NCBI GenBank assembly: GCA_964464555.1 | Contig: CAYXGM010000007.1 | Location: 1-59,706, forward strand | From: an uncultured Gemmatimonadaceae bacterium | GTDB lineage: Bacteria; Gemmatimonadota; Gemmatimonadetes; Longimicrobiales; Gaopeijiaceae | DNA: 59,706 bases | Direction of reading: 5' to 3' | Shown: positions 1-42,230 of the stretch, one piece after another | How positions within the stretch are numbered: the stretch's first letter is position 1 | Layout: every line of letters begins with the position of its first letter | The notes under the pieces: model-generated | Seen by the model: only the letters and a program-made list of their open reading frames with translations | The model's database searches: none | Told to the model about the DNA's origin: nothing | Position numbers and translations under genes: made by a program

Positions 1-1221
1 GCTCGTCCCGCCCCCCCCCTCCCCATCCTCCCCTACCCCGGGTCGGTCCGTCCCCAGCCTCAGGTGCTCCGGACCCAGGGTGGCTCCCCGGGCCAGGATG
101 GACGCCCGGGTGAGGGCGTTCTCCAGCTCCCTGACGTTCCCGGGCCAGTCGTACTCCTCGAGCATGCGCATGGCCTCGGGGTGAATGCGGTGGACTTCCT
201 GCTGGGCCTCCTTCCGGATCCGGCCCAGGAGGTGTCGGGCCAGGTCGGGAATGTCCCCCCTCCGCTCACGGAGGGGAGGCACCACGATCTCCACCACCCT
301 CAGCCGAAAGTAGAGGTCTTCCCGAAAGCCCCCCTCCTCCACCTGGGCCTCCAGGTCCTGGTGGGTGGCGGTGATGATGCGGGCATCGGTGCGCCGGGCC
401 GTCTCCCCACCCACGGGGAAGAACGTCCTGTCCTGGAGGACCCGGAGGAGCTTGGTCTGGAACTCCAGGGTCGTGTCGCCGATCTCGTCCAGGAAGATGG
501 TCCCGGTCCCGGCGAGCTCGAAGTACCCCTTCCGGCCCGACACGGCCCCGGTAAAGGCCCCCTTCACATGGCCGAAGAGCTCGGACTCCAGGAGGGTGTC
601 GCTGAGTGCCGTGCAGTTCACGGCGATGAACGGCTCGTCGGCATGGAGGGAGTGGTTGTGGATGGCCCGGGCCATGACCTCCTTCCCCGTCCCCGTCTCT
701 CCCCGGACCAGGACGGTAGAGCGGTTCCTGGCCAGGACACCGATCATCTTGAAGATCTCCATGAGCCGGGGATCGGTGCCGATGACCCTGCTCTCCCCGG
801 TCCCAGCTTCCTCCTCTTCGTCTCCACCTTCCCGGGCCCGGGCCCGGAGGTTCAGCTCCCGCTCCCGGAGACACCGGGAGACGAGCTCCTGGAGGGCGCC
901 CACCTCGATGGGCTTCACGACGTAGTCGAAGGCCCCGCCCTTCATGGCCCGGATGGCGGACGTCATGTCCTCGTGCCCGGTCATGACGATGACTTCCACC
1001 CCCTCCATCCCTTCCCGGGCACGCTCCAGGAGCTCCACCCCGTCCATCCCCGGCAGTCGCAAGTCGGTGAGGACCAACGCAGGATCGAACTCGTGGATCC
1101 TGGCCAGGGCCTGCTCGGCGTCCTCGGCCCGCTCCACCTCGTAGCCGCTGCCCTCCAGGATGGAGCTGACCACCTCCAGGTGATCCGGATCGTCGTCTAC
1201 AACCAGAACTCTGTGAGCCAT
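1..1221 (-). CDS. sigma-54-dependent two-component response regulator (NtrC family); C-terminal end lies beyond the window start
   Basis: The minus-strand frame has ATG at 1219-1221 and no stop before position 1, which is why it is missing from the ORF track. Translation begins MAHRVLVVDDDPDHLEVV...LTDLRLPGMDG (receiver domain). It continues into a sigma-54 AAA+ core with Walker A GETGTGKE and the signature ESELFGHVKGAFTGA around 541-600. The plus-strand ORF 64..1446 is its antisense shadow. Confidence 0.85.
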   Translation of the reverse strand, partial: MAHRVLVVDDDPDHLEVVSSILEGSGYEVERAEDAEQALARIHEFDPALVLTDLRLPGMDGVELLERAREGMEGVEVIVMTGHEDMTSAIRAMKGGAFDYVVKPIEVGALQELVSRCLRERELNLRARAREGGDEEEEAGTGESRVIGTDPRLMEIFKMIGVLARNRSTVLVRGETGTGKEVMARAIHNHSLHADEPFIAVNCTALSDTLLESELFGHVKGAFTGAVSGRKGYFELAGTGTIFLDEIGDTTLEFQTKLLRVLQDRTFFPVGGETARRTDARIITATHQDLEAQVEEGGFREDLYFRLRVVEIVVPPLRERRGDIPDLARHLLGRIRKEAQQEVHRIHPEAMRMLEEYDWPGNVRELENALTRASILARGATLGPEHLRLGTDRPGVGEDGEGGGGTS

Positions 1222-1246
1222 GTTCGGCGAATCCTCGTCCATGTCC

Positions 1247-2323
1247 TCAACCGGGGCCCCGGTCCTTCCTCTCCGGACCGACGTCGCCCCCCCTTTCTTC
1301 CTTCACGTCCCCGTCAACGCCCCCGCTCCCCTCCCTACCCCCTTCATCGGGGGCATGAGCCCAGTAGGCCGGCTGGTCCGGGGGCTCGGTGGCACGCAAT
1401 CTGGCCATGGCCTCCCGGTTCCGCTTTTTCCGGACCCTCGCCATGAGGAGAAGGGCCAGGGTCAGAACCAGCCAGAAGGCGGTGGAGTGGGAGAGAACGA
1501 AGAGCCATCCGTACCGCCGCTTCACGTACTTTTTCCAGTCCTCCTCGAACTGCCCCAGCGTGACGCCGTACACCCTCCGAAAGGCCGCCGGAAAGGACCG
1601 CTCTTCCCTCCACCGCTGCAGGAGGAGCTCCAGTCCCCTCTCTCCGCTCTCCGCCACGAGGTACTCCACCGCCGTGGCGGAGAGGAGATAGGCCAGCTCG
1701 GCCGACGCCCTGTCCCTGGGCCAGGCCAGGACCAGGGAATCCAGGGGCGGTGCTCGTCCCATGGCGAAGGCGACCCGAAGACGCCACCCGTCGGTGAACG
1801 CCCATCCCCCCGATGTCCATTGGCTGAAGCCCTCGTCGAACCAGCGGGGAACCCTGAGGCCCTGGAGATATTGCTGGAGGGCTACGTGAGCCCACTCGTG
1901 CTTCAGGACCCGGGCCTCGTCCCAGCCCCTGGTCCGCTGGACCCCGAAGCCGGGCATGATGATCCGGCCCCTGGAGGGAAGGGCTACGCCGGCCCCCCAC
2001 TCCGGCACCGTACCCCCGGCCAGGGAGTCGAAGGCCGGGCGGTTCGGGGCGATGTAGACGCTCACCCCCGAGGGGAGGGTGTCGGGGAGAGCCGGAAAGG
2101 GGGGAAGAGACTGGAGGAGAGCCAGGATCCGGCGGGCCCTGAGGGAGTCCCCTCCACGGTAGCCCACCCGCACACGATCCCCCTGCGCCCAACGGTAGGA
2201 GGCCGCCTGGGGCAAGGCCTGCAGGTACGCCGACGAGCCGGAAGATTCCGGTGGCCGCCCATGGAAGGGCGCGGCCGCCGTCCCCACCACCAATAGCACG
2301 GAAGAAAGGATCGGGAGCCTCAC
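1247..2323 (-). CDS. putative secreted/membrane-anchored zinc metalloprotease (HExxH motif; peptidase MA-like)
   Basis: N-terminal signal-peptide-like MRLPILSSVLLVVGTAAAP. An HEWAH zinc-binding motif. A C-terminal hydrophobic helix (WLFVLSHSTAFWLVLTLALLLMA) followed by a basic stretch. I did not recognise a close family. Confidence 0.5.
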   Translation of the reverse strand: MRLPILSSVLLVVGTAAAPFHGRPPESSGSSAYLQALPQAASYRWAQGDRVRVGYRGGDSLRARRILALLQSLPPFPALPDTLPSGVSVYIAPNRPAFDSLAGGTVPEWGAGVALPSRGRIIMPGFGVQRTRGWDEARVLKHEWAHVALQQYLQGLRVPRWFDEGFSQWTSGGWAFTDGWRLRVAFAMGRAPPLDSLVLAWPRDRASAELAYLLSATAVEYLVAESGERGLELLLQRWREERSFPAAFRRVYGVTLGQFEEDWKKYVKRRYGWLFVLSHSTAFWLVLTLALLLMARVRKKRNREAMARLRATEPPDQPAYWAHAPDEGGREGSGGVDGDVKEERGGDVGPERKDRGPG

Positions 2324-2339
2324 GAGCCCCCCCCGGCCC

Positions 2340-3962
2340 TCAGGGTAACGCCGACAGACCCCCCAGATGGACCCGGGCGTCGGCGTTCTCGGGGTTCAGC
2401 TCCATGGCCCGCCGCAGGAGGAGGATGGCCAGATCCTTGTCGGCTTCATCCAGGGCGATCTCACCCAGTCTGACGTAGACCTCGTCGCCCAGGGACGGGT
2501 CCATCTTCACGGCCCGCTCGTAGTGGGCCCGGGCTCCCATCTTGTCACCCCGCCGGTAGGCCTGGTCCCCCAGATTCTTGTGGGCCTGGGGCGGAGCCTC
2601 GGAGCCGGAGTTCAGGGCCCGGAGGAAGTACTGCTCTGCCGCCTCGTGATCCCCCTTCCGGTCCAGGACCACCCCGGTGTTCACCAGGATGGGCGGATCG
2701 GCGGGATGAGCCTGGAGCCCCTCCCGGCCCAGGGTGATGGCCTCTTCCAGGTACCCGGCGATGGCTGCGGCCAGGACGGCGAAGGTGAAGTAGAGGGCCG
2801 GGGGTTCTTCGTTTCCCAGGTCCTTCCGGTACTTCTTGAAGGTGGCCCGCGCGCTGGCTGCGTCGCCGGACTTGAGCTCGGCAATCCCCCGGGCCAGGGC
2901 CAGGCCCGGATCCCCGGTCTTCACCGTAGCAGCCTCGCCGAGATCTCTCAGGGCCTCGTCGAACCGTCCCAGGCGCTCCAGCGCCAGCGCCCGGTTTCTC
3001 AGGACGGCATATCCCCCGGCTTCCTCCTCGGGCATGGCGTCGAAGTGCTCCACGGCCTCCTCCGCCTCGTCGGAACGGAGGCTGATGAGGCCCAGATAGA
3101 AGCGGGCCGTGGGCTCGGAGGCGTTCCCCTCCACGGCCTCCCCGAACTCCCGGGCGGCGTCTTCCAGCATGCCGGCACGGTAGAAGGCCTGACCCAGGTT
3201 CACATGCTGATGAACGGCGGAGTCGTCCTTTTTTCCGGCCCTGGTTTCCTTCTTGCCCACCTGCTGGACGAAACCGGCCTGGATCAGCTCGAAGAGGGCC
3301 TTGCCCGTTTCGAACTCCACCAGTCCCGACTCCGATACCAGGTCGTCCACCGTCCGGGTACCATCCAGGAGGGGAAGGAGCTTCTTCTGGTTCGTGCTCA
3401 GCTCCACGTCCTCCTGTTCCGCCGGGTCCCGAACCAGCTTGAAGATGAGATCCATGGAGGGGATCTTCTTCGCGATGAGGCTCCACTCGTCCACGCGGCG
3501 GGCCCCCTCCATGAGGAGCCCGTCGGCGTTGAGAGAAACCAGGAAGACCTCGTCCTCATCCGGACTCTCGTCGGGATTGAAGTGGAAGGACCCCTTGTCC
3601 CAGGTGAAGAGGTGGTAGACCGCCTCCTCGATCTGGGTGGTGATCCACGTCTCCAGCTCCTCCTGGGTGAGAGCGCCGAAACCGACGAGGATCTCTCCCA
3701 GCTTCTTTCCCCCCTGCCGGCTCTGTTCCTCCATGGCCCTGGAGAGATCTTCCCGCTCGATGGCGCCGTTCTTGACCAGGAGCTCGCCCAGGCGATCGGG
3801 TCGGTTCAGGACCGACGCATAGATCACTCTACCCTTGTCGAAGTAGATGTAGCCGAAGTTGGAACGGTCGGTGGTGGTGAGGCACCCGGTCTTCCTTCCC
3901 AGGGAGAGAAGCTGGCAGATGTCGGCCAGGCTGACGTCGGCGAGAGAGCCTTCGATAGCCAT
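2340..3962 (-). CDS. DUF4388 (PATAN-like) domain protein with C-terminal TPR repeats
   Basis: The N-terminus GSLADVSLADICQLLSLGRKTGCLT...GYIYFDKGRVIYAS fits the DUF4388 pattern. The C-terminal half is rich in TPR-like helical repeats (AEQYFLRALN..., AHYERAVKMDP..., LLLRRAMELNPENADA). The start ATG (3960-3962) overlaps the stop of the upstream DnaA-like gene by 1 nt (ATGA). Confidence 0.7.
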   Translation of the reverse strand: MAIEGSLADVSLADICQLLSLGRKTGCLTTTDRSNFGYIYFDKGRVIYASVLNRPDRLGELLVKNGAIEREDLSRAMEEQSRQGGKKLGEILVGFGALTQEELETWITTQIEEAVYHLFTWDKGSFHFNPDESPDEDEVFLVSLNADGLLMEGARRVDEWSLIAKKIPSMDLIFKLVRDPAEQEDVELSTNQKKLLPLLDGTRTVDDLVSESGLVEFETGKALFELIQAGFVQQVGKKETRAGKKDDSAVHQHVNLGQAFYRAGMLEDAAREFGEAVEGNASEPTARFYLGLISLRSDEAEEAVEHFDAMPEEEAGGYAVLRNRALALERLGRFDEALRDLGEAATVKTGDPGLALARGIAELKSGDAASARATFKKYRKDLGNEEPPALYFTFAVLAAAIAGYLEEAITLGREGLQAHPADPPILVNTGVVLDRKGDHEAAEQYFLRALNSGSEAPPQAHKNLGDQAYRRGDKMGARAHYERAVKMDPSLGDEVYVRLGEIALDEADKDLAILLLRRAMELNPENADARVHLGGLSALP

Positions 3963-5971
3963 CAGTCAACCTCCTCCACCAGACGCTCTTCCGGTCTCGG
4001 CCACTCCCAGATGACCCGCTCGGGCGACGGGAACCAATCCCCGGCCACCGGCGCCTCGGGCTCCTCGTCGTCGGCCGAAGCCTCCGTGGGGTCGGGCGCC
4101 TCCTTTTCCGATACGTCCCGGCCGAGCTGGACTCCGCCTCCGGCCGTGAAGGCCATGATGAACTCCCGGTCCAGGGCCCGGACATCCACCTCCTCCGACT
4201 CCTTCGGCCTCGTCCGTTCCGTCTCTTCGTCCTCCGTGGAGGGCTCGGGCTCCGAGGCCTTCGGAGAGGGCGGACCGAATCCCTCCCGGCTGTCCTCGTC
4301 CATAACGATCTGGTCCAGGGGTGGGATCATCCCCTCCTCCCGGGCGCCGGGAGCCTGCCCGCGGCCTCTCTCGCTGCCGGCCTCGATCTCCAGGACCAGC
4401 CCACCTTCGAACCGGGACCGGAGCCGGTCATCGATCTTGCCGATCTTGGCCGGAGGGCAGTCTGCCGCCACCATGATCTTGGCCCGGCGTCTCTGCAGGG
4501 CTTCGAAGAGGTGGAAGAACTCGTCCTGGGCCCGCTCCGTGGCCGAGAGATCCGCAGCGCCGTGCACGAGGAGAAGCTCCGCGGACCACCATCGCTCCCG
4601 CCAGGCACCGGCCACTCCGGAGGAAAGGGCGGCGATGAACTCCTCGGCGAACTCCAGGACCGAGACCATTGCCACCCGGGCCGTATCCTTCTCGGCCAGG
4701 TAGCTCCGTCCCGCCGCCTCCAGAAGGTCCTGGGCCGACCCGGGCTCTTCGCTCCAGACGTAGAGGGGGTTGTATTCCTGCCGGTCCGTGGTGATGAGCT
4801 GCTCTGCGGCGCGAACCACCAACTGTGGATATTTCCCGGCCAGGCCATCCAGCCCCGGGCCCGGAGGAAGCTTGGGAAAGGGGCGGGCCCGCTCCCGTGC
4901 CGACGCCAGGAGGGTCTCGGCCTCTTCCAGCCGGTCCGGATCCCGCAGGACGCCGTGTGCCGCCTCGGGCCAGGGGTTGCCCACCGAATCCAGCTCGGCC
5001 TTGATCTCGGCCAGGCGGCCGGTCACCTGCTTGAAACGCTCCACCGCCTCCACCACGCCCTCGGGTTCTTCCTCCTCCTCCATCAGACGCTGAAGCCTGG
5101 TGGTCTTGAATCCCTGAACTTCGGCCTCCTCCAAGGTCTCTCTCAGGAGCTTCCGCCAGGGTGCCTCCTGCCGCTGGACCTGTTCGGCCACGGTGCCGGA
5201 AATCTCGTCCATGAACTCGCCTACGTCCGACTCGCCGGCGAGGGACTCCTCCATGGCTTCCAACCCCAGCAGGGAGGAAGCCTCATCGGGGTTGACGGCG
5301 CGATTCTCCAGCTCCTGGATGGCCAGGATCCGGTTCAACGCGCCGCCCAGCTCACGGATGTTCTTGAAGGGGACCCGCCCGATGACCTCGGCAACTCCCG
5401 GGTCCAGAGCCTGTCCCCTGGCATCGGCCTGCTTGCGGAGAATGGCCACACGGGTCTCGTACTCGGGCGAGCCGATATCCACGAGAAGCCCGCCCTCGAA
5501 CCGGCTTCGAAGCCGGGCATCCAGCCCGTCGATGTCCACGGGAGGTCTGTCGCTGGCCAGGACCACCTGCTTTCCCTCGCCCGTCAGGCTGTCCAACGTC
5601 CGCAGTAGCATCTCCTGGGCCTCGGACTGCCCGGCGAGGAACTGGACATCGTCCATGAGGAGAATGTCCAGTTGCCCATACCGCCCCTTCACCCCCTCCC
5701 GATCCCCTCCCTGCAGAGCCTCCGTCAACTCCCCGAGGAATCCCTCCAGGGTCTGGTAGACCACGTCCTTGTCGGGCTGGTGTCGGGACACATGATGGGC
5801 GATGGCCCCCAGAATGTGCGTCTTCCCCAGGCCCGACGCGGAGTAGACGAAGAGAGGGTTGTAGCTGGCGCCCGGGCTCTCGGCCGCCCGGCGCGCCGCG
5901 GCGGACGCCAGCCGGTTGGCTGGGCCCACCACGAAGGTTTCGAAAGTGAATCGTGGATCCAAGTCCGTCAT
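3962..5971 (-). CDS. DnaA-paralog AAA+ protein with tandem DnaA-type modules (second degenerate) and no DnaA domain IV
   Basis: Module 1 has Walker A SASGLGKTHIL, Walker B DILLMDDVQFL, box VII RLRSRFEGGLLV and a lid (NIRELGGALNRI). Module 2 (YNPLYVWSEEPGSAQDLL...AKIMVAADCPP...DDRLRSRFEGGLVLEI) lacks the GKT P-loop but keeps the box VII arginine motif. The C-terminal tail is acidic. No RDHTTV-type DNA-binding motif is present. The track ORF extends to 6079 (MADGK...) but would then overlap rluD by 86 nt. ATG at 5969-5971 (MTDLDPRFTFETF...) is the preferred start. Confidence 0.65.
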   Translation of the reverse strand: MTDLDPRFTFETFVVGPANRLASAAARRAAESPGASYNPLFVYSASGLGKTHILGAIAHHVSRHQPDKDVVYQTLEGFLGELTEALQGGDREGVKGRYGQLDILLMDDVQFLAGQSEAQEMLLRTLDSLTGEGKQVVLASDRPPVDIDGLDARLRSRFEGGLLVDIGSPEYETRVAILRKQADARGQALDPGVAEVIGRVPFKNIRELGGALNRILAIQELENRAVNPDEASSLLGLEAMEESLAGESDVGEFMDEISGTVAEQVQRQEAPWRKLLRETLEEAEVQGFKTTRLQRLMEEEEEPEGVVEAVERFKQVTGRLAEIKAELDSVGNPWPEAAHGVLRDPDRLEEAETLLASARERARPFPKLPPGPGLDGLAGKYPQLVVRAAEQLITTDRQEYNPLYVWSEEPGSAQDLLEAAGRSYLAEKDTARVAMVSVLEFAEEFIAALSSGVAGAWRERWWSAELLLVHGAADLSATERAQDEFFHLFEALQRRRAKIMVAADCPPAKIGKIDDRLRSRFEGGLVLEIEAGSERGRGQAPGAREEGMIPPLDQIVMDEDSREGFGPPSPKASEPEPSTEDEETERTRPKESEEVDVRALDREFIMAFTAGGGVQLGRDVSEKEAPDPTEASADDEEPEAPVAGDWFPSPERVIWEWPRPEERLVEEVD

Positions 5972-5993
5972 GATCCCCGTATCGGCTCGACGG

Positions 5994-7070
5994 TCACGTC
6001 TCTTTAGGTTCTTCTCGTTTAAGCTCTTCGTGTGCACCGGCGTCCCGGCCCGAGCCCGGCGGCTCTTCCCATCCGCCACCCCTGGCCCAGGCCACGACCC
6101 TGGCGAAGTCCTCCGGCAGGGGCGCCCGGAACTGCATCTCGTCTCCCGTAGTGGGATGCCGGAAGCTCAGATCCGCAGCGTGGAGCAACTGCCTGCGGAC
6201 CATCTTGTCCAGTTCCCGGGCCCAGGCCCGGATCGAACCACTCATCCCCTTCGCCCGGCCTCCCCCATAGACCTCGTCACCCACCACCGGATGACCCAGA
6301 TGAGCCAGGTGCACCCTGATCTGATGGGTGCGCCCCGTCTTCAGGGACACGTCCAGGTACTCCGCCGCTTCCCACCGCTCCCGGACCCGGAGGCGGGTCA
6401 CCGCCCTGCGTCCCTCCTCGACGACGCCCATGCGCTTCCGGTCCCGGGGATCCCGGCCCACGGGAGCATCCACCGTCACCGGCGACTCCCGGAGGTGGCC
6501 CCAGGCGACGGCCCGGTAGACACGTCGAACTTCTCGCCTTCGGAGGGCGTTGGAAAGGGCCACGTGGGCATCATCTCCCTTGGCCACCACCAGAAGGCCC
6601 GATGTGTCCCGGTCCAGACGGTGCACGATGCCGGGGCGGAGCTTTCCCCCGATACCCGAAAGGTCCTCCACCCGGTGGAGCAGAGCATTCACCAGTGTCC
6701 CCCTCGGATGCCCCGGGGCCGGATGAACCACCAGACCCGCCTGTTTGTTCACCACCAGGAGCGCGGAATCCTCGTACACCACATCCAGCGGGATGTCCTC
6801 GGCTTCGGCCTCCAGGGGCTCGGGTGGAGGAATTCGCACCTCGATGGTCTGGCCCGGTGCCACAGCGCCGGACTTCCTCGCCGGCTTCCCGTCCACCCTC
6901 ACCCTTCCTTCCTGGATGAGGGTCGCGCACCGGGACCGGGAAAGGGACAGGGTCCCGGCCAGGTATCGGTCCAACCGGCCGTCGGCCCCCTCCGGTACCG
7001 TCAACCGGGCGACTTCCTCGCACTGGGAAGCCGTCGTGCTCTTCCCTCCTCCCGGTGGCGGCCGTTTCAC
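5994..7070 (-). CDS. rluD: 23S rRNA pseudouridine synthase, RluD/RluA family (S4 domain + catalytic domain)
   Basis: S4-like N-terminus (DGRLDRYLAG...RSRCATLIQEGRVRVDG). Catalytic motif VVHRLDRDTSGLLVVAK. GTG start overlaps the ileS stop (GTGA). Confidence 0.85.
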   Translation of the reverse strand: MKRPPPGGGKSTTASQCEEVARLTVPEGADGRLDRYLAGTLSLSRSRCATLIQEGRVRVDGKPARKSGAVAPGQTIEVRIPPPEPLEAEAEDIPLDVVYEDSALLVVNKQAGLVVHPAPGHPRGTLVNALLHRVEDLSGIGGKLRPGIVHRLDRDTSGLLVVAKGDDAHVALSNALRRREVRRVYRAVAWGHLRESPVTVDAPVGRDPRDRKRMGVVEEGRRAVTRLRVRERWEAAEYLDVSLKTGRTHQIRVHLAHLGHPVVGDEVYGGGRAKGMSGSIRAWARELDKMVRRQLLHAADLSFRHPTTGDEMQFRAPLPEDFARVVAWARGGGWEEPPGSGRDAGAHEELKREEPKET

Positions 7071-11120: not shown

Positions 11121-11904
11121 CGAGCTTCTTCTCCCCGTCGTCGTCTTTCAGGAGGGAGGAGAGCCAGAGGGGCTCCCGGCCCGAGGCCCGCTCTTCGGAT
11201 GGCGCTTCCTCCTCCTGCATCCCGTCCCCGGGACCGTTCGCAGCCTCCTCCGGCGCCTCGGCTTCCGGCTCCTCGGGGTCCCCCTCCTCGGGTTCCCCCT
11301 CCTCGGAGTCCGCCTTCCCGGCTTCCGGTTCGGCGGCCCCCGGACTGCTCTCCGGAGGCGCCGACGGCGTCCAGCCCCGGAGGTTCAGATCCAGGGGGGC
11401 GTCCTCCAGGGGCCGTCGGGCCTCCTCCACCTCCACGGCATCCATCTCCCGCTCAAGGAGGCTCCGGAAGCCCTTCAGGAACTTCCGCCGGTTCCGCTCC
11501 AGATCCTCCAGGGCCCGCTGTCGCTCCCGGATGAGCCCCTCCGCCTCGGCCAGGCGGCGCTGAATCTCCGCCTCGGCCTGGGCCCTGACGATCTCCGCCT
11601 CCCTTCGAGCCTGGTCCTTGACACCTTCCGCCTCCCGGTGGCTCTGACTCTGAACGTCGTCCCGGAGCTTCTGGGCCGTCACCAGGGCGTCCTGGACGGC
11701 CTTCTCCCGCCCCTCCAGCGCCCTGAGCTGGCCTTCCATGCGCTGGTTGGACTCCGAGAGGGCCAGGTTCTCCCTCACCAACTCTTCCATGCGTTCGGCC
11801 GCCACCTCCAGGAAGGCGTCCACCTCCTCGGGATCATAGCCCCTGAGCTTGGGGCGGAAATCGCCCCTCTTCTTTCGAACATCAAGCGGCGTGAGGTCGA
11901 TCAT
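11113..11904 (-). CDS. divIVA: DivIVA domain cell-division protein with acidic C-terminal tail
   Basis: The N-terminus MIDLTPLDVRKKRGDFRPKLRGYDPEEVDAFLE is canonical DivIVA. It is followed by a long coiled coil and an Glu/Pro-rich tail. Confidence 0.8.
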   Translation of the reverse strand: MIDLTPLDVRKKRGDFRPKLRGYDPEEVDAFLEVAAERMEELVRENLALSESNQRMEGQLRALEGREKAVQDALVTAQKLRDDVQSQSHREAEGVKDQARREAEIVRAQAEAEIQRRLAEAEGLIRERQRALEDLERNRRKFLKGFRSLLEREMDAVEVEEARRPLEDAPLDLNLRGWTPSAPPESSPGAAEPEAGKADSEEGEPEEGDPEEPEAEAPEEAANGPGDGMQEEEAPSEERASGREPLWLSSLLKDDDGEKKLDG

Positions 11905-12611
11905 CGCGGACGCTCCCCAAAGAGTGCGGTCCCAATTCTGACCATGGTGCTTCCCTCCTCCACGGCCAGCTCGAAATCGTTGGTCATTCCCATGGAAAGC
12001 TCCCGGCCCTCATACCCCGGGAGTTCTTCGGCCTTCTCCTGTACGGCCCGCAGCCCCGCAAAGGTCCTGCGCAGCACGGTCTCGTCGTCCACGAAGGGGG
12101 CCATGGTCATGAGGCCCCCGACCTCCAGACCCGGCAACTCCAGGATCCGGTGGATGGCCTCCACGGCCTCCTCCGGGGCGAAGCCGCTCTTCGCCTCCTC
12201 CCCGCTCACGTTCACCTGGATGAGTCCCGAAAGAACCCGCTCATGCTCCAGGGCGAACTTCGAGAGCCTCCTGGCAAGCTTGAAGCGATCCACCGAGTGG
12301 ACCAGGTCGGCCAGCTCCACCGCCTGCCGGGCCTTCCGGCTCTGGATAGGGCCCACCATGTGCCAGGTGGCCCTCCCCCTCCCCAGCTCTCCGACCTTCT
12401 CCTCCATCTCTTCGAGCCGATTCTCCCCCAGATCGTGGATTCCCGCTCGGAGGGCGGCTTGGAGAGCCTCGAGAGGATGGGCCTTCGTAATCGCCACGAG
12501 CGTGACGTCAGCCTCGGTTCTTCCCGACCGAAGAGCCGCCGCGCCGATGGTCTCCCTCACCCGGGGCAGGTTCTCTCTGAGCTGGTCCGCGTATGTCTTC
12601 GTTTGCTGCAT
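11901..12611 (-). CDS. yggS: YggS-family pyridoxal-phosphate homeostasis protein
   Basis: Alanine-racemase N-terminal fold pattern with ...VTLVAITKAHP... (PLP lysine) and ...HMVGPIQSRKAR... Overlaps the divIVA start by 4 nt. Confidence 0.85.
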   Translation of the reverse strand: MQQTKTYADQLRENLPRVRETIGAAALRSGRTEADVTLVAITKAHPLEALQAALRAGIHDLGENRLEEMEEKVGELGRGRATWHMVGPIQSRKARQAVELADLVHSVDRFKLARRLSKFALEHERVLSGLIQVNVSGEEAKSGFAPEEAVEAIHRILELPGLEVGGLMTMAPFVDDETVLRRTFAGLRAVQEKAEELPGYEGRELSMGMTNDFELAVEEGSTMVRIGTALFGERPR

Positions 12612-12755: not shown

Positions 12756-13448
12756 CTATCTGGTGGTGAAGGTAATGGGCAGGGAAATCCAGACCGGTAC
12801 CTGCTTGTCCCGGTTCAGGGCCGGCGAGAACTCGATGATGTCCGCCACGCGAATGGCGGCATCGTCCAGGGCCTTGTGACCCGAGGACTCGTTCACGAGG
12901 GTCCGCTGCACGGCCCCCTCCTCGTCGATGAAGAACCAGACCTGGACCGAGCCTCCGATGCCCGCGTCACGAAGCAGCGGGGGATACTCCCGCTCCAGGG
13001 CCCGGGCCACCTCGGCCCGGTTGCGGATGTCGGGGCGGACGGTGAAGGGCGTGAAGGTCGGAGCCGCAGCCAGATCGGTCTGAGCCACGTCTTCGGGTGG
13101 CGGCGGCAGGTCCTCCACCGGGTTGTCCTCGAAGGTGGTGGGCGCAATCGTGATGTCCTCGTCGATGTCCGCCGACGCGATCACCGGCGTGGCCGGCCTG
13201 GCAATGGCCTCGGGCGGGGGCGGAATCTCGATCTCCGGGGGTAGCTCGATGGCCTCCAGCTCGTCGGCCGTGTAGGAGACGTCCTCGGCCGTCAGCTCCG
13301 GAAAGAAGTAGAAGACGGAGAAATGGAGCAGTGTGGCGAGGATCATGGACCCCCAGAACCAGGATCCGAAGGACCGCTTGAACCGGTCGTTCGCCGTCGA
13401 AGTGACGGAGCTGATTCCGGACTCGTCGGGTACTGCTTGTGCACTCAT
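12756..13448 (-). CDS. tonB: energy transducer TonB (N-terminal membrane anchor, Pro-rich linker, TonB C-terminal domain)
   Basis: TM helix WFWGSMILATLLHFSVFYFF. A Pro/Glu-rich linker (PPEIEIPPPPEA...). A C-terminal TonB-type domain (...GGSVQVWFFIDEEGAV...VPVWISLPITF). The start overlaps the exbD stop. Confidence 0.75.
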   Translation of the reverse strand: MSAQAVPDESGISSVTSTANDRFKRSFGSWFWGSMILATLLHFSVFYFFPELTAEDVSYTADELEAIELPPEIEIPPPPEAIARPATPVIASADIDEDITIAPTTFEDNPVEDLPPPPEDVAQTDLAAAPTFTPFTVRPDIRNRAEVARALEREYPPLLRDAGIGGSVQVWFFIDEEGAVQRTLVNESSGHKALDDAAIRVADIIEFSPALNRDKQVPVWISLPITFTTR

Positions 13449-13894
13449 CGTCTTGCCCTCGTCATCTGCCGTTCCAGCTCGGTGGCGAACACCACGCGAA
13501 CCACCCCGGCCGCGACCAACTCTTTCTGCACCGCATCAATGTAGGTATACGGTGTCTCACGATCGGCTCTTACCGAGATCACCAGGTGCCGGTCGGACTG
13601 CGCGTAGAGGGGCGCAATCACGCCGGACACCTCGTCCATGGTGTATTCCTGATCGTTGATCCAGACGGAGCCGTCGCGCTCCACCCAGATGTTCAGGATG
13701 TTCTTCACCTTCTCGTCGATCTTCTGGGTGGCCTTGGCCTGGGCCCACTCGATGGGCCGCTCCCTGGACGTCCGAAAGACCGTGGTGACCATGAAGAAGA
13801 TGAGAAGCAGAAAAGCGATATCTGCCAATGAGGAGGACGGGATCTCCGAAGATGCCTTCGATTTACGGTCAAACCCGCCGGTTTTGATGGCCAT
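13445..13894 (-). CDS. exbD: biopolymer transport protein ExbD/TolR (copy 2)
   Basis: The N-terminal ...EIPSSSLADIAFLLLIFFMVTTVF... is a typical ExbD TM segment, with the expected size and periplasmic domain. Confidence 0.8.
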   Translation of the reverse strand: MAIKTGGFDRKSKASSEIPSSSLADIAFLLLIFFMVTTVFRTSRERPIEWAQAKATQKIDEKVKNILNIWVERDGSVWINDQEYTMDEVSGVIAPLYAQSDRHLVISVRADRETPYTYIDAVQKELVAAGVVRVVFATELERQMTRARR

Positions 13895-13896
13895 CG

Positions 13897-14322
13897 TTAT
13901 TCCTCCAGGATCTGCAGTGAGATCCGCTCCGCTCCGGCGGATTGAAGGGAGTCGAGAACGTCGATCATGAACCGGTGCGGCGCATCCGGATGGGTCTTCA
14001 CGGCAGCGATGAGATTCGGGTTGCCCGTCACCTCCTGACGCCAGAGGGACTCGATGTCGTCGGGCCGCATGGTTTGAATGGAGGTGCTCTCACCCCGCTT
14101 CACCTCCACCACGCCATCGGGACGGACGATGAGGTGAAGGATGTTGCTCTGGCTTACGGCCTGCTCCTCACCCTCCTCCGGGAGAACCACGCTGAGCCCC
14201 TTGTCCTTGGGGAAGACCGTGGTCACGAGGAAGAAGATGAGGAGAAGGAACGCGATGTCGGCCATGGACGACGTCGGGATCTCGTCGCTGACCTTCGATT
14301 TCTTCTGATTCAGGACGGCCAT
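13897..14322 (-). CDS. exbD: biopolymer transport protein ExbD/TolR (copy 1)
   Basis: ...EIPTSSMADIAFLLLIFFLVTTVF... This is paralogous to the adjacent copy. Confidence 0.8.
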   Translation of the reverse strand: MAVLNQKKSKVSDEIPTSSMADIAFLLLIFFLVTTVFPKDKGLSVVLPEEGEEQAVSQSNILHLIVRPDGVVEVKRGESTSIQTMRPDDIESLWRQEVTGNPNLIAAVKTHPDAPHRFMIDVLDSLQSAGAERISLQILEE

Positions 14323-14404
14323 GATATGTCTTCCTGTTGCCTCTCAAGTCCTTTACAGGGTCCCGGGGAACAAAGTTCCCTGGTGCCCGGATCGTCCCCC
14401 GGCC

Positions 14405-15220
14405 CTACTCCACGTCCGTGGGATGGTCGTCGGTGCCGATCTCCCCGGCGGTGTCGGGCTCCGAGGGGACGGAGGCTCCCCGCACCATGGGAGAGGAAGC
14501 CGAGCCCACGCCGGAGAGACTCCTGCGCATCTCTGCCTTTTTAACCACCTCGAGCTTCCCTTCCTTCTCGAAGTCCCAGGCCAGGTTGAGGATCTGCTGC
14601 GTGCCCTGCTCCATGTCCAGGATCAGGCTGTCGATGCGGGTCACGAAGTAGTTGTACCCGATGTTGACGGGGATGGCGATGGCCAGCCCCGTAGCGGTGG
14701 TCAGGAGCGCCACCTTGATCCCCCCGGCTACCAGCGCCGGATCCACGTCCCCCGCCGCCTCGATGGAGGCGAAGGCCATGATCATGCCGGCAACGGTGCC
14801 CAGGAAGCCCATGAGCGGAGCCACGTTGGCCACGGTGGCCAGGACCACCAGGCCCCGCTCCAGAAAGCCGAGCTCGATGGCACCCGTGGTGCTCACCGCC
14901 TTTTCCATCTCACCCTCGGCGATCTTGGCCGTGCGAATTCGCCGGAGGCCGGCCAGGAGGATGGCCGCTGTCGGTCCGGGGGTCTCGGACGCCAACTCGA
15001 TGGCCTCGTTCACCTGCCCCTCCCGGGCCAGCTCCTCAACGGAGCCCAGAACCTTCTTGGTGCTCCGGTGAGCCAGCCAGAGGGTCCATGCCTTGGCGAT
15101 CACGACGCCCAGGGCGATGAGGGAACACAGGACGAGGGGATACATCATGAACCCGCCGTCGGCGAAGAGCGTCAGCAGTTCGTACTGTGAGCCTGCCAAG
15201 GGGAACTCCTTTTCTTCCAA
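14405..15220 (-). CDS. exbB: MotA/TolQ/ExbB proton-channel protein
   Basis: Three TM segments and the MotA/ExbB signature region ...ATVANVAPLMGFLGTVAGMIMAF... It heads an exbB-exbD-exbD-tonB unit. The start could instead be the internal MMYPL. Confidence 0.8.
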   Translation of the reverse strand: MEEKEFPLAGSQYELLTLFADGGFMMYPLVLCSLIALGVVIAKAWTLWLAHRSTKKVLGSVEELAREGQVNEAIELASETPGPTAAILLAGLRRIRTAKIAEGEMEKAVSTTGAIELGFLERGLVVLATVANVAPLMGFLGTVAGMIMAFASIEAAGDVDPALVAGGIKVALLTTATGLAIAIPVNIGYNYFVTRIDSLILDMEQGTQQILNLAWDFEKEGKLEVVKKAEMRRSLSGVGSASSPMVRGASVPSEPDTAGEIGTDDHPTDVE

Positions 15221-15341: not shown

Positions 15342-16106
15342 TTACCCAGGGGGTCCGCTGAGAATCTCCCGAAGGCGGCTCTCTTCCAGCCCCACCTCGA
15401 TCCGGCCACCCCTGGCGACGGACACCCGGCTCGTCTCTTCACTTACGACGATGACCGTCGCATCCGTCTCCTCGCTGAGCCCCACAGCGGCCCGGTGCCG
15501 CGTCCCCAGGGACCGATCCAGAATCGGAAGCTGGGTGAGGGGGAGGATGGCGCCGGCCGTGACGATCTTGCCCCCGTTGATGATGACGGCGCCGTCATGG
15601 AGAGGGGTGTAGGGGGTGAAGATGGTCTTCAGCAGCTCGGCCGAGATCGGGGCATTCACCGGACTTCCCGTCTCGGCATACTCCTCCAGGCCCACCTCCC
15701 CCTGGATGGCGATGATGGCCCCCCGCTTGAGGCGGGCCAGCTCCAGGACCGCCTCGAGGAGCTCTTCGGCTTCCTGGCTCTCTTCCATGGACCGGAGGTA
15801 CCGGATGAAGCGGCTCCGGCCCAGGCGGGCAAGTCCGGACCGGAGCTCGGGCTGAAAAACCACGAGGGCCGCGATGGCCCCGTACTGAAAGATGGTCTCC
15901 AGGAGATAGCGGATGAGGGCAAAATCCAGGAGCCGGGCCACGAAATAGATGCCCACGAGGAGGAATGCTCCCAGGAGCATCTGCATGGCCCGGGTCCGCT
16001 GGAGGAGGAGGAGGAGCCGATAGAAGAGAGCCGCGACGATGAGGATCTCGATGAGGTCTCCCCATCCCGGGCGCAGGAATTGAAGCTGGTCCCAGACTCC
16101 GCTCAT
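15342..16106 (-). CDS. cdaA: diadenylate cyclase CdaA (c-di-AMP synthase, membrane-anchored DAC domain)
   Basis: N-terminal TM helices. DAC motifs ...PLHDGAVIING... and ...LGTRHRAAVGLSEETDA... Confidence 0.85.
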   Translation of the reverse strand: MSGVWDQLQFLRPGWGDLIEILIVAALFYRLLLLLQRTRAMQMLLGAFLLVGIYFVARLLDFALIRYLLETIFQYGAIAALVVFQPELRSGLARLGRSRFIRYLRSMEESQEAEELLEAVLELARLKRGAIIAIQGEVGLEEYAETGSPVNAPISAELLKTIFTPYTPLHDGAVIINGGKIVTAGAILPLTQLPILDRSLGTRHRAAVGLSEETDATVIVVSEETSRVSVARGGRIEVGLEESRLREILSGPPG

Positions 16107-23021: not shown

Positions 23022-23870
23022 TCATCCTCCCGAGGGCGGGCCCTGGTTCACCCTGATCTCCTTCACCTGCACCGTGAAGTCCATGCCCCCGGAGGCCAGC
23101 ATCTCCTCCATCTGCTCCATCTGTCCCCCCATCATCCCTTCCATCATCCTCCGCTGGGCCTCGGGCATGTTCTCCATCTGGGCTTGCATCTCTTCCAGGG
23201 ACCGGCGCATCTCGGCCACCTCCTCCTCGGACATCTGCGGACCGAATCCCTCGTTGGTGACCTGGGTCTCGAAGGGGTGCATGAGCCCCTCCACCTCCCG
23301 ATAGTCCCGCATGTGGGCGGTGAAGGAGGCTTCACTTGGGGCCCCCTGCATGGTGGCCGTGCCCTGAATGGTCATCTTTCGGACGAGGTAGTCGTCCGTA
23401 TCGACCCAGAAGGTAGCTTCCCGTGCCTCGAACCCTCCCGTGCCACCGCTCTCCACGGGCCCCATGAAACCGGCGTCTTCCAGGTTGTCCAGTTTCACGA
23501 CGTAGCAGTCCTCGCCGTCCGCGGACTCGGTGCCCTCGTTCGAGGCGTGTTCCGCCGCTTCAAGGAAAGCCCGGTAGGGATCGCCGGGGCCCTGCTGTCC
23601 CGCCTCGCTGCCCAGTTGGGACCGGGGCACGAAGGTCACGTGGCCATCCACCTCCTCCTTCTCGAAGTAGATGGACGACTCGAATCCCATGACCTCCTGG
23701 ACGAGGGTGTAGTTCTCGATTCCCGCCATCCGCTCCTCGTGCCGCTCCAGGGCCGTGCGTAGGATCTCGGCACCACTTTGAGCCGAAAGGCCCGAAGAAA
23801 GGACGGGAAGGGCGGAGGCGACGAAGAGGAGAACTCCGAGAACCGTCGATTGGACCGGAGACTTCTTCAT
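23022..23870 (-). CDS. secreted protein with Met-rich C-terminal region (possible periplasmic metal/Cu-binding protein)
   Basis: Start at ATG 23868-23870 (MKKSPVQSTVLGVLLFVASALPVLSSGLSAQS signal peptide). The C-terminus is MRRSLEEMQAQMENMPEAQRRMMEGMMGGQMEQMEEM. The first 42 aa of the track ORF lie upstream of the signal peptide and are probably not translated. Confidence 0.55.
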   Translation of the reverse strand: MKKSPVQSTVLGVLLFVASALPVLSSGLSAQSGAEILRTALERHEERMAGIENYTLVQEVMGFESSIYFEKEEVDGHVTFVPRSQLGSEAGQQGPGDPYRAFLEAAEHASNEGTESADGEDCYVVKLDNLEDAGFMGPVESGGTGGFEAREATFWVDTDDYLVRKMTIQGTATMQGAPSEASFTAHMRDYREVEGLMHPFETQVTNEGFGPQMSEEEVAEMRRSLEEMQAQMENMPEAQRRMMEGMMGGQMEQMEEMLASGGMDFTVQVKEIRVNQGPPSGG

Positions 23871-24015
23871 AGGGAGGTTCCCTTTCGTTTGTTGGAATGA
23901 CTGGGAATGATAACCCGGACCCCGGCTCGAGGTTCGGAGGATCACCCCTGTGGGAGCGTGTTTGAGCAGGTGGGGCGGACCCGGATACCCAGACACGCCT
24001 CTCTACCTGAAATCT

Positions 24016-40188: not shown

Positions 40189-41784
40189 TCAGACTCTCAA
40201 GACCAGGGCGGTCCTGTCGTCGGCGGGGATGGACGGACTGACTCCTTCGGCGGCACTGAAGAGCCCTTCCACGATCCCCTCCAACTTCCCGTTCCGACCC
40301 TCGACGGCGGCCTCCAACACCACCTCCTCCCCGTTCCCTCCGTGGACGGCGGCCAGGGTGTCGCTGAGCCCGTCGGTGAAGAGGAGGAGGAGATCCTCGC
40401 CGGTCTGCCAGGGGACGACCCGGTCCTCGAAGGCATCGGGGCCGGCGATGCCCACCGGGGGGTCGGTGGCATTCAGCCGCTCGGAGCTTCCGTCGGCGTG
40501 GATGATGAAGGCGTGGGGGTGGCCCGCGTTGGAGTAGATCAACTCCCCATTCACCGGGTCCAGGACACCGTAGAAGAGGGAGAGGTACATCTCGGTGGTC
40601 TCCAGCTCGTCCCGGAGGGCGTCGTCCAGGTCCCGGAGGACCCGGCCGGGCCGACCCACCTCCAGCGCGTAGATGGCTGCCGCGCTCATGGAGAGGGCCA
40701 TGATGAGGGCTGCGGGGAACCCGTGGCTGGAGACGTCCCCGATCATGACGCCGATACGCCCCTCCGAGAGGTGGAGGAGGTGGAAAAAGTCTCCGCCCAC
40801 CTGCTCCGCGGGCTGCACCCGGGCCGCCACGTCGGCCCCCTCGAAGGCCTCGGCCACGGGGAGGAGCTTCATCTGGAGGTTGTGGGCCAACTCCATCTCC
40901 TTCGTGACCCGCTCCTGGGCCAGGCTTTCCCGGATGAGCCGGTGGTTCTCCAGGGCCGCCCCCACCTGGCTGGCGATGGCCGAAAGGAGCTTCTGGTCCG
41001 AGGCGGTGAAGCGGCCGCCCCGCTTTCGGCCGATGAGGTTCATCACGCCCACTGTCCGGGGCTCTCCCGCCGGGGGCGTGTACCGGATGGGGACCGAAAG
41101 GAGGGAGTCGCCCCGGTCCCGCAGGGGAAGACGGGTCTCTCCCGGCTCGGCCAGCTCTCCCACGATGACGGACCGGCCTTCCCGGAACACCCGGGCCGTC
41201 ACGGCCTGGGAGTCCGAGACGGGGAGGGGCCCGTCCAGGCCGCGATCTCCCACGGCCGCCACCAGGGCCAGGAGGTCCTCGTCGGGTTCGTAGACCCAGA
41301 GAGACCCCCGGCGGGCACCCAGGACGTCGCACACCTCTCCCAGGATCACCCGGGCCGCGTCGTCGAGCCGGAGGAGGGAGCCCAGGGTCTCGCTGATGGA
41401 ATAGAGGAGGTTGATCTCCTCGTAGCGCTCGCTGAGCTCATAGGTGAAGAAGCGGACCTCGAGGCTGAACTCGAAGGCCCGCTCCAGGAGGTTGCCCACC
41501 AGGGCCGCAGCAGCTTCCTGGCGCTCGTCGGGGACCCCTTCGATCTCCAGGCGCAGGTCCGGACCCTCCCGGGGCCGGAGGGTCCGCTTCACAGTGAGGC
41601 CGGTGGGTTGGCACTTCAGAAGCGTCTCGCCCGCGGGGTTTTCCGTTTCGTAGACAAGCTCGTCCTTCTCGCCCTCCTCCTCCCGCCAGACGCGGAAGGT
41701 CACGGAGAGAATCTGTTCGAAGTCGTGGAGGGTCTCGAGAACGGGGTCGGGAAGGGTGCGAAGAGCCGGAAGCTCCGGGGTCAT
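40189..41784 (-). CDS. GAF-domain PP2C-type serine phosphatase (RsbU/SpoIIE-like)
   Basis: Start at MTPELPALRTL. The ATG overlaps the upstream kinase stop (ATGA). A GAF-like middle region. A C-terminal PP2C/SpoIIE domain (...GDVSSHGFPAALIMA...LFTDGLSD...). The 654-aa track ORF is a read-through extension. Confidence 0.8.
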   Translation of the reverse strand: MTPELPALRTLPDPVLETLHDFEQILSVTFRVWREEEGEKDELVYETENPAGETLLKCQPTGLTVKRTLRPREGPDLRLEIEGVPDERQEAAAALVGNLLERAFEFSLEVRFFTYELSERYEEINLLYSISETLGSLLRLDDAARVILGEVCDVLGARRGSLWVYEPDEDLLALVAAVGDRGLDGPLPVSDSQAVTARVFREGRSVIVGELAEPGETRLPLRDRGDSLLSVPIRYTPPAGEPRTVGVMNLIGRKRGGRFTASDQKLLSAIASQVGAALENHRLIRESLAQERVTKEMELAHNLQMKLLPVAEAFEGADVAARVQPAEQVGGDFFHLLHLSEGRIGVMIGDVSSHGFPAALIMALSMSAAAIYALEVGRPGRVLRDLDDALRDELETTEMYLSLFYGVLDPVNGELIYSNAGHPHAFIIHADGSSERLNATDPPVGIAGPDAFEDRVVPWQTGEDLLLLFTDGLSDTLAAVHGGNGEEVVLEAAVEGRNGKLEGIVEGLFSAAEGVSPSIPADDRTALVLRV

Positions 41785-42230
41785 GCCGAGGCCTCGGTTT
41801 CGGACAGGGGAGGACCCTCCTCGGGGGGAAGCCGGAGGACCAGGGTCACGCTGTTTCCCTGGTCGTTGAAGTGGACCTCGTCCAGGAGCTTCCGCATGAG
41901 GAAGATCCCCCGGCCACAGACCTTCATGAGGTTGGCGGGACGGGTCGGATCGGGCAGGCAGAAGGGGTCGAACCCGTTCCCCTCGTCGGTGATCCGTGCG
42001 GTGATGGCCGACTCCTGGAAGGCCACCTCCATCTTCACCGTCTTCGAGGGATCCCGATCGTTTCCGTAGAGCATGGCGTTGGCCAGCGCCTCGGTGAGGC
42101 CGACCCTCAGGTTGAGCCGGAGCCTGCGAGGATGGGTTTCCACGGCCGTGCACTGTTCCACGACGTAGTCCACCGCCTCCTCGATGGAGGAGAGGTCGTT
42201 GGGGATGTCCAGGACGAGATCCGGAGCCAT
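41781..42230 (-). CDS. anti-sigma regulatory factor / serine protein kinase (HATPase_c; RsbW/SpoIIAB-like)
   Basis: ...RVGLTEALANAMLYG... and ...ITDEGNGFDP...GRGIFLMRKL... (Bergerat-fold ATPase). Confidence 0.75.
   Translation of the reverse strand: MAPDLVLDIPNDLSSIEEAVDYVVEQCTAVETHPRRLRLNLRVGLTEALANAMLYGNDRDPSKTVKMEVAFQESAITARITDEGNGFDPFCLPDPTRPANLMKVCGRGIFLMRKLLDEVHFNDQGNSVTLVLRLPPEEGPPLSETEASA

Follow-up and report, generated by a model that had tools for sequence, protein, structure and literature searches.

Why should an ATPase built like part of the replication initiator DnaA be encoded in direct contact with a PATAN (DUF4388/PatA_N) protein that carries tetratricopeptide repeats (TPRs)? 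The question arises at one end of a stretch of 59,706 nucleotides (nt) from an uncultured Gemmatimonadaceae bacterium (GTDB order Longimicrobiales, family Gaopeijiaceae; assembly GCA_964464555.1, contig CAYXGM010000007.1), which is called the window throughout. Bases 1-7070 of the window are a run of minus-strand genes with nearly no intergenic space. An earlier note on this DNA had singled out four of them, encoding a DnaA paralog (here DnaA2), the PATAN-TPR protein, an HExxH protease and a sigma-54 response regulator, as a possible signalling or cell-cycle module, and had called the pairing of the first two unexpected; such a pairing is indeed not described in the searchable literature. All four genes were confirmed on the minus strand where the note had placed them (Table 1). 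The best explanation of the comparisons described here is that DnaA2, PATAN-TPR and a membrane-anchored, extracytoplasmic HExxH peptidase form the conserved core of a putative signalling module specific to Gemmatimonadota, in which DnaA2, rather than being a second initiator, has probably been repurposed as a molecular switch.

The pair of genes was followed through its relatives by a PATAN-TPR profile scan with one genome per GTDB species, which supplied the best 80 of at least 548 relatives; neighbors were mapped by tblastn in 86 fetched loci and the window, 87 in all. In 85 of the 87, the gene immediately upstream of PATAN-TPR is that of DnaA2, in the same orientation; the remaining two lack upstream DNA. 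Stop and start codons overlap in 44 of the 85 loci, 0-30 nt separate the genes in another 34, and gaps of 45-163 nt occur in 7. The tight coupling that the earlier note had read from a single junction is thus general (overlap or a gap of at most 30 nt in 78/85), as is the conservation of the two genes as neighbors elsewhere. The adjacency is far beyond chance: it recurs in 85/85 informative loci, whose proteins are 45-80% identical and whose gene contexts are of two kinds.

Both families are abundant, and their taxon labels, which are available for a minority of metagenomic proteins only, are those of Gemmatimonadota (Longimicrobiales and Gemmatimonadales). The spread across phyla that the note had raised did not emerge: among the best 80 of at least 548 relatives every label is Gemmatimonadota except on two short contigs of metagenome-assembled genomes (MAGs), and within that sample both DnaA2 and PATAN-TPR appear restricted to the phylum. 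The two exceptions, L061 and L063 (2.6 and 5.9 kb), carry type A genes (defined below) in MAGs labelled Planctomycetota and Gammaproteobacteria, L061 having PATAN-TPR with DnaA2 upstream and L063 having the peptidase downstream. Their labels are probably the result of binning contamination.

Two gene-cluster architectures surround the pair. Type A, the architecture of the window and represented by about 47 loci, is rluD-[DnaA2-PATAN-TPR-peptidase]-sigma-54 regulator. Type B (about 35 loci, from Gemmatimonadaceae, Longimicrobium and "Bacterium HR33") is a large cluster built around the pair. The fully viewed example, L087 from Gemmatimonadaceae, opens with rluD, CheW, CheY, CheA, CheC, a 900-amino-acid (aa) TPR protein, a second PATAN protein, a TPR/Roadblock protein, a Roadblock, a Roadblock-like protein and a Ras/Arf-like GTPase; it continues with [DnaA2-PATAN-TPR], CheR, CheD, CheB, two CheW, a TPR protein and the peptidase. 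In the remaining type B loci the part from CheC to the peptidase is visible as far as the flanks extend. Intermediates also occur that keep GTPase and Roadblock genes and have no Che methylation genes: no Che gene at all is seen in L073 and L084, and L060 is without CheR-CheD-CheB. In the Longimicrobium locus L053 (8824-9999), about 2.6 kb of unrelated open reading frames (ORFs) lie between the GTPase gene and the DnaA2 gene.

Wherever the flank is visible, the slot directly after rluD is common to both types. From this shared position the window block would be a cut-down version of the larger arrangement, the apparent reduced remnant of a roughly 20-gene cluster of Che, small GTPase and Roadblock genes, and the window's lineage appears to have lost its Che and GTPase genes at this site. 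The placing of the core in Gemmatimonadaceae and Longimicrobium relatives, amid Roadblock, Ras-like GTPase and CheR-CheD-CheB genes, and in L087 also with CheW-CheY-CheA-CheC and directly after rluD, points to an output or scaffold step of a chemosensory or small-GTPase (polarity-type) pathway as its most likely ancestral role.

The DnaA2 protein itself is made of two DnaA-like modules, here D1 and D2, joined by a helical linker and followed by an acidic tail and a conserved C-terminal peptide. Pfam finds Bac_DnaA in two stretches (271.6 bits), and neither DnaA_N nor Bac_DnaA_C has a match in Pfam or NCBIfam. The protein begins at the first residues of domain III, with no domain I or II, and from this anatomy it is taken to derive from DnaA domain III with the loss of all DNA-recognition and helicase-loading domains. 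D1 holds the full set of domain III AAA+ signatures: Walker A (GLGKTH), Walker B (LLMDD), sensor 1 (SDRPP), box VII (RLRSRFEGGL, with Arg157 kept in 119/120 proteins) and sensor 2 (NIRELGGAL); across homologs its P-loop opens with Ser or Ala. By sequence D1 matches Bacillus subtilis DnaA domain III (PDB 8bv3) with E 6e-62, and its AlphaFold2 (AF2) model superposes on that structure with a root-mean-square deviation of 1.6 Å, a TM score of 0.92 and 46% identity in the structural alignment. The folded parts of DnaA2 are modelled with pLDDT above 90.

D2 is related to the D1 core (29% identity, E 3e-16 by blastp) and in the window has retained box VII alone. SEEPGSAQ stands at its Walker A site and LLVHGA at its Walker B site, and the lid and sensor 2 are missing; Arg516 and Arg520 of box VII are nevertheless present in 120/120 proteins, and a GVAGAWRERWW motif is invariant as well. 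The second module of the window protein is accordingly predicted to be a pseudo-ATPase. The linker carries conserved, family-specific motifs (PWRK, GNPWPEAA and RDPxRLxEAE) and is kept even where D2 is absent. When the whole DnaA2 model was used in a fold search, the matches were to DnaA, to Hda and to generic tandem AAA+ proteins (p97, for example), and the linker had no match of its own. An assignment of DnaA2 as an IstB/IS21-like transposition helper was rejected in view of weak scores, the lack of a transposase and the fixed chromosomal position.

The C-terminal peptide of the family follows the pattern WFPSPExVxWEWP...RL(I/V)EE.., and in the window its GAGGAG codons double as the Shine-Dalgarno sequence of the PATAN-TPR gene. 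The motif is also kept at loci where the two genes do not overlap, and protein-level constraint on it is likely because it persists in L005, where the genes are 153 nt apart. The terminal EEVD of the window protein was considered as a eukaryote-style ligand of a TPR clamp and set aside: the family consensus is (I/V)EE(L/V/P)(D/E or K/R), so that the exact EEVD is coincidental.

The state of D2 varies with gene context. P-loops were taken by extraction anchored on profile hidden Markov models (HMMs), and representatives at 50% identity were aligned. Most type B loci encode a D2 with an intact GxxGxGK[ST], a DD Walker B and a lid with a sensor-2-like VRELQGA segment, and in all of the approximately 47 type A loci the D2 Walker A is degenerate. 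Three type B or intermediate loci (L067, L076 and L084) also have a degenerate D2, and the Longimicrobium protein of L053 (391 aa) consists of D1, linker and C-terminal peptide with no D2 at all. These three parts are then the apparent universal core of DnaA2. Loss of the D2 Walker A tracks loss of the GTPase and Che neighbors. Because D2 arose through duplication of a working ATPase, its degenerate and absent states would be derived, and it is for this reason that the window form is labelled reduced.

This co-variation also bears on the explanation that would require no functional link whatever, with the genes simply packed in a long housekeeping operon and their adjacency a matter of inherited synteny. 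The array ileS-rluD-dnaA2-patan-pepMA-RR (RR, response regulator) does have gaps of only -4 to 25 nt throughout, and no convincing internal promoter or terminator was found inside it, as such an operon would predict. The pair, however, stays adjoined in 85/85 loci while its surroundings differ between the two architectures, the loss of D2 motifs correlates with the loss of neighbors, and both families seem confined to the same phylum. Packing without any functional link is considered highly improbable.

A weightier alternative is that DnaA2 controls replication. In this case it would act in the manner of Hda, or otherwise against DnaA, by co-assembling with the domain III of genuine DnaA at the origin as a donor of arginine fingers or as a filament cap, and initiation would be coupled to signals relayed by PATAN-TPR, whether from cyclic di-GMP (c-di-GMP), from polarity or from a chemosensory system. 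D1 departs little from a canonical DnaA domain III, both modules have invariant arginine fingers, including where D2 is unable to bind ATP, and Hda shows that a DnaA-derived AAA+ protein can do without DNA-binding domains. The score of DnaA2 against the TIGR00362 equivalog of DnaA (363.5 bits against a cutoff of 343.9) would seem to add to this. It is the sum of two partial domain III matches, aligned over model positions 102-336 of 437 only, and is an annotation trap and no evidence of initiator function. Against the Hda models the protein falls short (TIGR03420, 103.7 against a cutoff of 194.8; NF005982, 45.2 against 268). A regular-expression search of the protein found no clamp-binding motif of the QL[SP]LPL type at its N-terminus and gave only an internal QLDIL in the Walker B strand, and the basic residue of the single-stranded DNA (ssDNA) B-motif (Arg245 of Escherichia coli, Lys222 of B. 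subtilis) is Gln in 119/120 proteins of the window clade. The gene does sit in a divIVA-ileS-rluD neighborhood, a position that is probably historical synteny; its conserved neighbors are Che, Roadblock, GTPase, PATAN and peptidase genes and never replication genes. Replication control is for these reasons regarded as possible but doubtful.

A variant that joins the two ideas, and that is judged unlikely, would make the DnaA-derived ATPase the effector of a chemosensory, small-GTPase and c-di-GMP pathway that acts directly on the genuine initiator DnaA. Were it true, environmental or polarity signalling in Gemmatimonadota would be coupled to replication initiation by a dedicated "decoy initiator", a new class of replication regulator, and the window version would be a streamlined form that is independent of signals or responds to c-di-GMP only.

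The reading of DnaA2 as a switch in signalling depends in part on its partner. The DUF4388 assignment made in the earlier note stands under HMM search: PATAN-TPR matches DUF4388/PatA_N (PF14332) with 129.9 bits against a cutoff of 25, along with many TPR families; the PF14332 alignment pairs model positions 1-122 with residues 4-161 and is interrupted by an insertion. Homologs (n=120) are about 540 aa long and 58-80% identical, and the window protein is 42-43% identical to its orthologs in Gemmatimonadaceae. In L002 (9902-11525) the ortholog was called as two ORFs of 238 and 314 aa, either through a frameshift, an assembly error or a real split.

The insertion resembles MshEN, a c-di-GMP-binding domain defined by two strict 24-residue motifs, RLGxx(L/V/I)(L/V/I)xxG(L/V/I)(L/V/I/F)xxxxLxxxLxxQ, with a 5-residue spacer (PMC5013675). 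It scores 49.6 bits against NCBIfam NF053729 (an MshE-related c-di-GMP-binding motif; cutoff 38), and a relaxed form of the published expression matches twice, at residues 57 and 87. A profile search of the PDB, limited to the N-terminal 240 residues since the full-length query was swamped by TPR matches, found the solved MshEN domains of PilF (6f8l, 3e-10), PilB (5zfr, 3e-8) and MshE (5htl, 3e-4). The AF2 model places four helices at residues 55-120; the PATAN fold proper is modelled with low confidence (pLDDT about 50). The insertion is best described as an MshEN-like candidate c-di-GMP site and not as an established one.

The peptidase lies downstream of the pair in both architectures. It matches Peptidase_MA_2 (PF13485) with 50.5 bits against a cutoff of 32.4 and has a hydrophobic N-terminus (residues 1-21), a HEWAH zinc motif at residues 142-146 (nt 1886-1900) and a C-terminal transmembrane segment at residues 273-297 (nt 1433-1507), followed by a cytoplasmic tail of about 60 aa. 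The topology read earlier from the sequence, an HExxH protease with a signal-peptide-like N-terminus and a C-terminal anchor, is borne out in the window protein, and HExxH and the C-terminal transmembrane segment recur in 66/66 complete orthologs. This constancy lends itself to a further explanation, that DnaA2 is an assembly or quality-control ATPase which, with its TPR adaptor, helps to assemble or regulate an envelope complex (the membrane peptidase or some other) and takes no part in signalling itself. The peptidase accompanies the pair in both architectures with a fixed topology that includes the cytoplasmic tail, and TPR proteins are often assembly chaperones. On the other hand, the filaments of initiator-clade AAA+ proteins are open and helical, and proteins of this clade are not known as unfoldases or remodellers, and in the Che-type loci 4-6 genes separate the peptidase from the pair. 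An assembly role is thought quite unlikely.

The sigma-54 regulator is less constant. It comprises Response_reg (102.9 bits), Sigma54_activat (220.4 bits) and AAA_lid_14, with GAFTGA at residue 221, and its gene leaves the window after residue 407; of the orthologs viewed, that of L002 (487 aa) has a weak match to the helix-turn-helix family HTH_8 and that of L003 (440 aa) has none on record. It follows the peptidase in most type A loci and in zero type B loci. The four-gene module of the earlier note therefore survives in its core of DnaA paralog and PATAN-TPR, with the peptidase nearby, and does not survive as far as the regulator is concerned, which is confined to the window's clade and absent from Che/GTPase-type loci. 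In L001 (12561-17974 of a 4.46-Mb contig) the regulator is missing, and an opposite-strand histidine kinase and a GvpA/K/L/F gas-vesicle cluster come after the peptidase.

Taken together, these data give about an even chance to the reading that DnaA2/PATAN-TPR works in a polarity or chemosensory module as a switch or scaffold driven by nucleotide. ATP-bound D1 would assemble head-to-tail through arginine fingers, as DnaA does, with no reader of DNA sequence, and D2 could serve as a built-in arginine-finger donor or as a filament cap; the complex would then switch with nucleotide state. PATAN-TPR would bind DnaA2, possibly by docking of the free C-terminal peptide of DnaA2 on the TPR array (a hypothesis), and would bring c-di-GMP input and target the complex to a partner machine. 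PATAN genes are known neighbors of mglA/mglB (PMC4316618), and a preprint reports an interaction of PATAN response regulators with the type IV pilus motor (10.1101/2021.06.11.447907). Of the alternatives "signalling or cell-cycle" offered by the earlier note, signalling is upheld as the best reading, from the Che/GTPase context in relatives, and the cell cycle is made less likely, since that same context shifts the probable role toward polarity or chemosensory output.

Several points weigh against this reading and should be set beside it. No Che, GTPase or Roadblock gene was found by tblastn or Pfam anywhere in the 59.7-kb window, whose link to such a pathway would run through homology to its relatives only. 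D1 is very DnaA-like (46% identity to B. subtilis domain III, and the TIGR00362 cutoff passed), which leaves an interaction with DnaA possible, and the orientation of D1 relative to D2 is uncertain in the AF2 model (pTM 0.51). As to c-di-GMP input, the strict MshEN expression has zero matches in the window PATAN-TPR, and both relaxed motifs occur in only 63/120 orthologs. Finally, given the tight packing of ileS-rluD-dnaA2 and the genes beyond, co-transcription alone is weak evidence of a shared function.

Table 1. Genes and subfeatures of the DnaA2/PATAN-TPR locus in the window (res, residues; positions are those of the window).
Feature	Position (nt)	Strand	Basis or remark
NtrC-type sigma-54 response regulator gene	1..1221	-	Pfam/NCBIfam; C-terminus cut by window edge
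Peptidase_MA_2 gene, 358 aa	1247..2323	-	Pfam; GTG start at 2323
PATAN(DUF4388/PatA_N)-TPR gene, 540 aa	2340..3962	-	PF14332 and TPR families
TPR array, res 247-537, ~14 helices	2352..3224	-	Pfam; AF2 pLDDT >90
MshEN-like helical insertion in PATAN, res 57-110	3633..3794	-	RLGELLVKNGAIEREDLSRAMEEQ + 6-aa spacer + KLGEILVGFGALTQEELETWITTQ
TGATG stop/start junction DnaA2/PATAN-TPR, 1-nt overlap	3960..3964	-	Shine-Dalgarno AGGAGG 7 nt upstream of the PATAN-TPR ATG
DnaA2 gene (tandem DnaA-domain-III paralog, 669 aa)	3962..5971	-	Stop TGA 3964-3962; start by family consensus N-terminus
Conserved C-terminal peptide of DnaA2, WFPSPERVIWEWPRPEERLVEEVD	3965..4039	-	Kept in both subfamilies
Acidic disordered tail of DnaA2, ~110 aa	4040..4387	-	pLDDT <50; 31 acidic vs 12 basic residues
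D2 of DnaA2, res 397-528, degenerate DnaA core	4388..4783	-	blastp vs D1; box VII conservation
Helical linker of DnaA2, res 240-395	4787..5254	-	Motifs conserved in 119 homologs; confident all-helical AF2 model
D1 of DnaA2, res 1-235, complete DnaA AAA+ module	5267..5971	-	PDB 8bv3 match, AF2 model, motif conservation
rluD, conserved upstream anchor in types A and B	5994..7070	-	GTG start overlaps ileS stop (GTGA)

Some gene boundaries differ from those first proposed. The DnaA2/PATAN-TPR junction reads ...GAGGAGGTTGAC TGA TGG..., in which TGA (3964-3962) and ATG (3962-3960) share an A, so that the overlap is TGATG and 1 nt, not the 4-nt ATGA of the earlier note. The GTG at 6079, which the note took as the DnaA2 start, is an over-extension that would overlap rluD by 86 nt; ATG 5971 (MTDLDPRFTF...) is very likely the true start, because the consensus N-terminus MxDLDPRFTF of 119 homologs corresponds to it. 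A gap of 22 nt then separates the rluD stop from this ATG, and ileS ends at 7067. From the end of PATAN-TPR to the peptidase GTG there are 16 nt. The distance from the peptidase stop to the regulator, given before as 26 nt, measures 25 nt (1222-1246). An alternative in-frame ATG at 1242 would shorten it to 4 nt, and with that start the regulator would begin MDEDSPNMAHRVLVVDD...

Transcription-unit boundaries were deduced from gene spacing. A strong terminator-like hairpin at 12721-12691 (minus strand; 13 pairs, 11 of them G-C, with a T-rich tail) lies between tonB (12756-13448) and yggS (11901-12611), and a long minus-strand unit, yggS-divIVA-(PNP-like ORF)-ileS-rluD-dnaA2-patan-pepMA-RR, may have its 5' boundary there. 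Upstream of yggS-divIVA, a cdaA-type diadenylate cyclase gene (CdaA_N and DAC; 15342-16106, minus strand) adjoins an exbB-exbD-exbD-tonB set (12756-15220, minus strand). Three long contigs (L001-L003) share the order divIVA-ileS-(lspA)-rluD-DnaA2-PATAN-TPR-peptidase, with or without the sigma-54 regulator, and parts of the cdaA / exbB-exbD-exbD-tonB / yggS-divIVA order recur in them. Elsewhere in the window, the minus strand encodes a 654-aa protein with GAF and SpoIIE (PP2C-type phosphatase) domains at 40189-42153, amid the housekeeping genes ksgA, recJ, dnaG, mutS2, prmA, dnaJ and hrcA, and a 324-aa ORF at 23022-23996 with high third-position GC content (GC3) and no Pfam match at E<=1e-8.

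The practical consequence concerns annotation. The DnaA2 family is named "DnaA/Hda family protein" by PGAP and "chromosomal replication initiator protein" by JGI, and the Gemmatimonadaceae form reaches 529.5 against the TIGR00362 cutoff of 343.9. Because the family passes this cutoff and is so named by JGI, Gemmatimonadota genomes seem to carry a second dnaA, which is a risk of systematic mis-annotation for the phylum and may mislead origin prediction anchored on dnaA. The broader interest is in an initiator ATPase module that would have been exapted, phylum-wide, into an apparent signalling or polarity module, a use not described in the searchable literature. The forms of DnaA2 make up a natural series: both AAA+ modules are active in Gemmatimonadaceae, the window clade has one active module and a finger-only pseudo-ATPase, and Longimicrobium has a single module. 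The series amounts to an evolutionary experiment on the requirements of a tandem initiator-type ATPase. For the poorly understood PATAN domain, the locus offers a testable candidate set of partners: PATAN-TPR itself, the MshEN-like pocket and a membrane peptidase. No paper was found that connects a DnaA-like ATPase to PATAN, to MglA/MglB or to Che clusters, or that describes the tandem family; coverage of the literature was incomplete, and this is absence of evidence only.

Comparison with known systems shows where the likenesses end. With DnaA, DnaA2 shares domain III, in that D1 has every AAA+ signature and the close superposition (1.6 Å) on the B. subtilis domain. DnaA has in addition domains I and II, for binding DnaB and regulators, and domain IV, the helix-turn-helix that recognizes the DnaA box; DnaA2 is without all of these and adds the tandem module, helical linker, acidic tail and C-terminal peptide, and in the window clade its ssDNA B-motif has Gln in place of the basic residue. 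Hda and HdaA are likewise DnaA-derived AAA+ proteins without DNA-binding domains and with an arginine finger as the key feature. Hda, however, is a single module of about 230 aa with an N-terminal clamp-binding motif, whereas DnaA2 is tandem, has another gene neighborhood, scores below the Hda cutoffs and had no clamp motif that could be found.

Among signalling systems, MglA/MglB modules come to mind because of what surrounds the pair in the window's relatives: a Ras/Arf-like GTPase, two PATAN proteins, two Roadblock proteins and a third that is weakly Roadblock-like. A DnaA-like ATPase is not described in MglA/MglB systems, and the window locus is itself without GTPase and Roadblock genes. 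The cyanobacterial PatA and PixG proteins (Tax/Pix) are also PATAN proteins encoded within Che-type clusters; in those proteins PATAN is joined to a receiver domain, whereas the window protein combines PATAN with TPRs and is encoded in a pair with an AAA+ ATPase. The likeness to the MshEN domains of MshE, PilB and PilF lies in two tandem 24-residue motifs of the RLGxxLVxxG...LxxxLxxQ type and in four helices (PMC5013675). There MshEN is N-terminal on a secretion ATPase; here the MshEN-like domain is inserted in PATAN and its spacer is 6 residues and not 5. Ala, Met and Ile occupy three hydrophobic positions (motif 1, 11 and 21; motif 2, 21), and motif 2 has Lys where the published motif has Arg. 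The parts of the locus come, then, from known families, and what is new is a DnaA-derived subfamily with a new set of partners.

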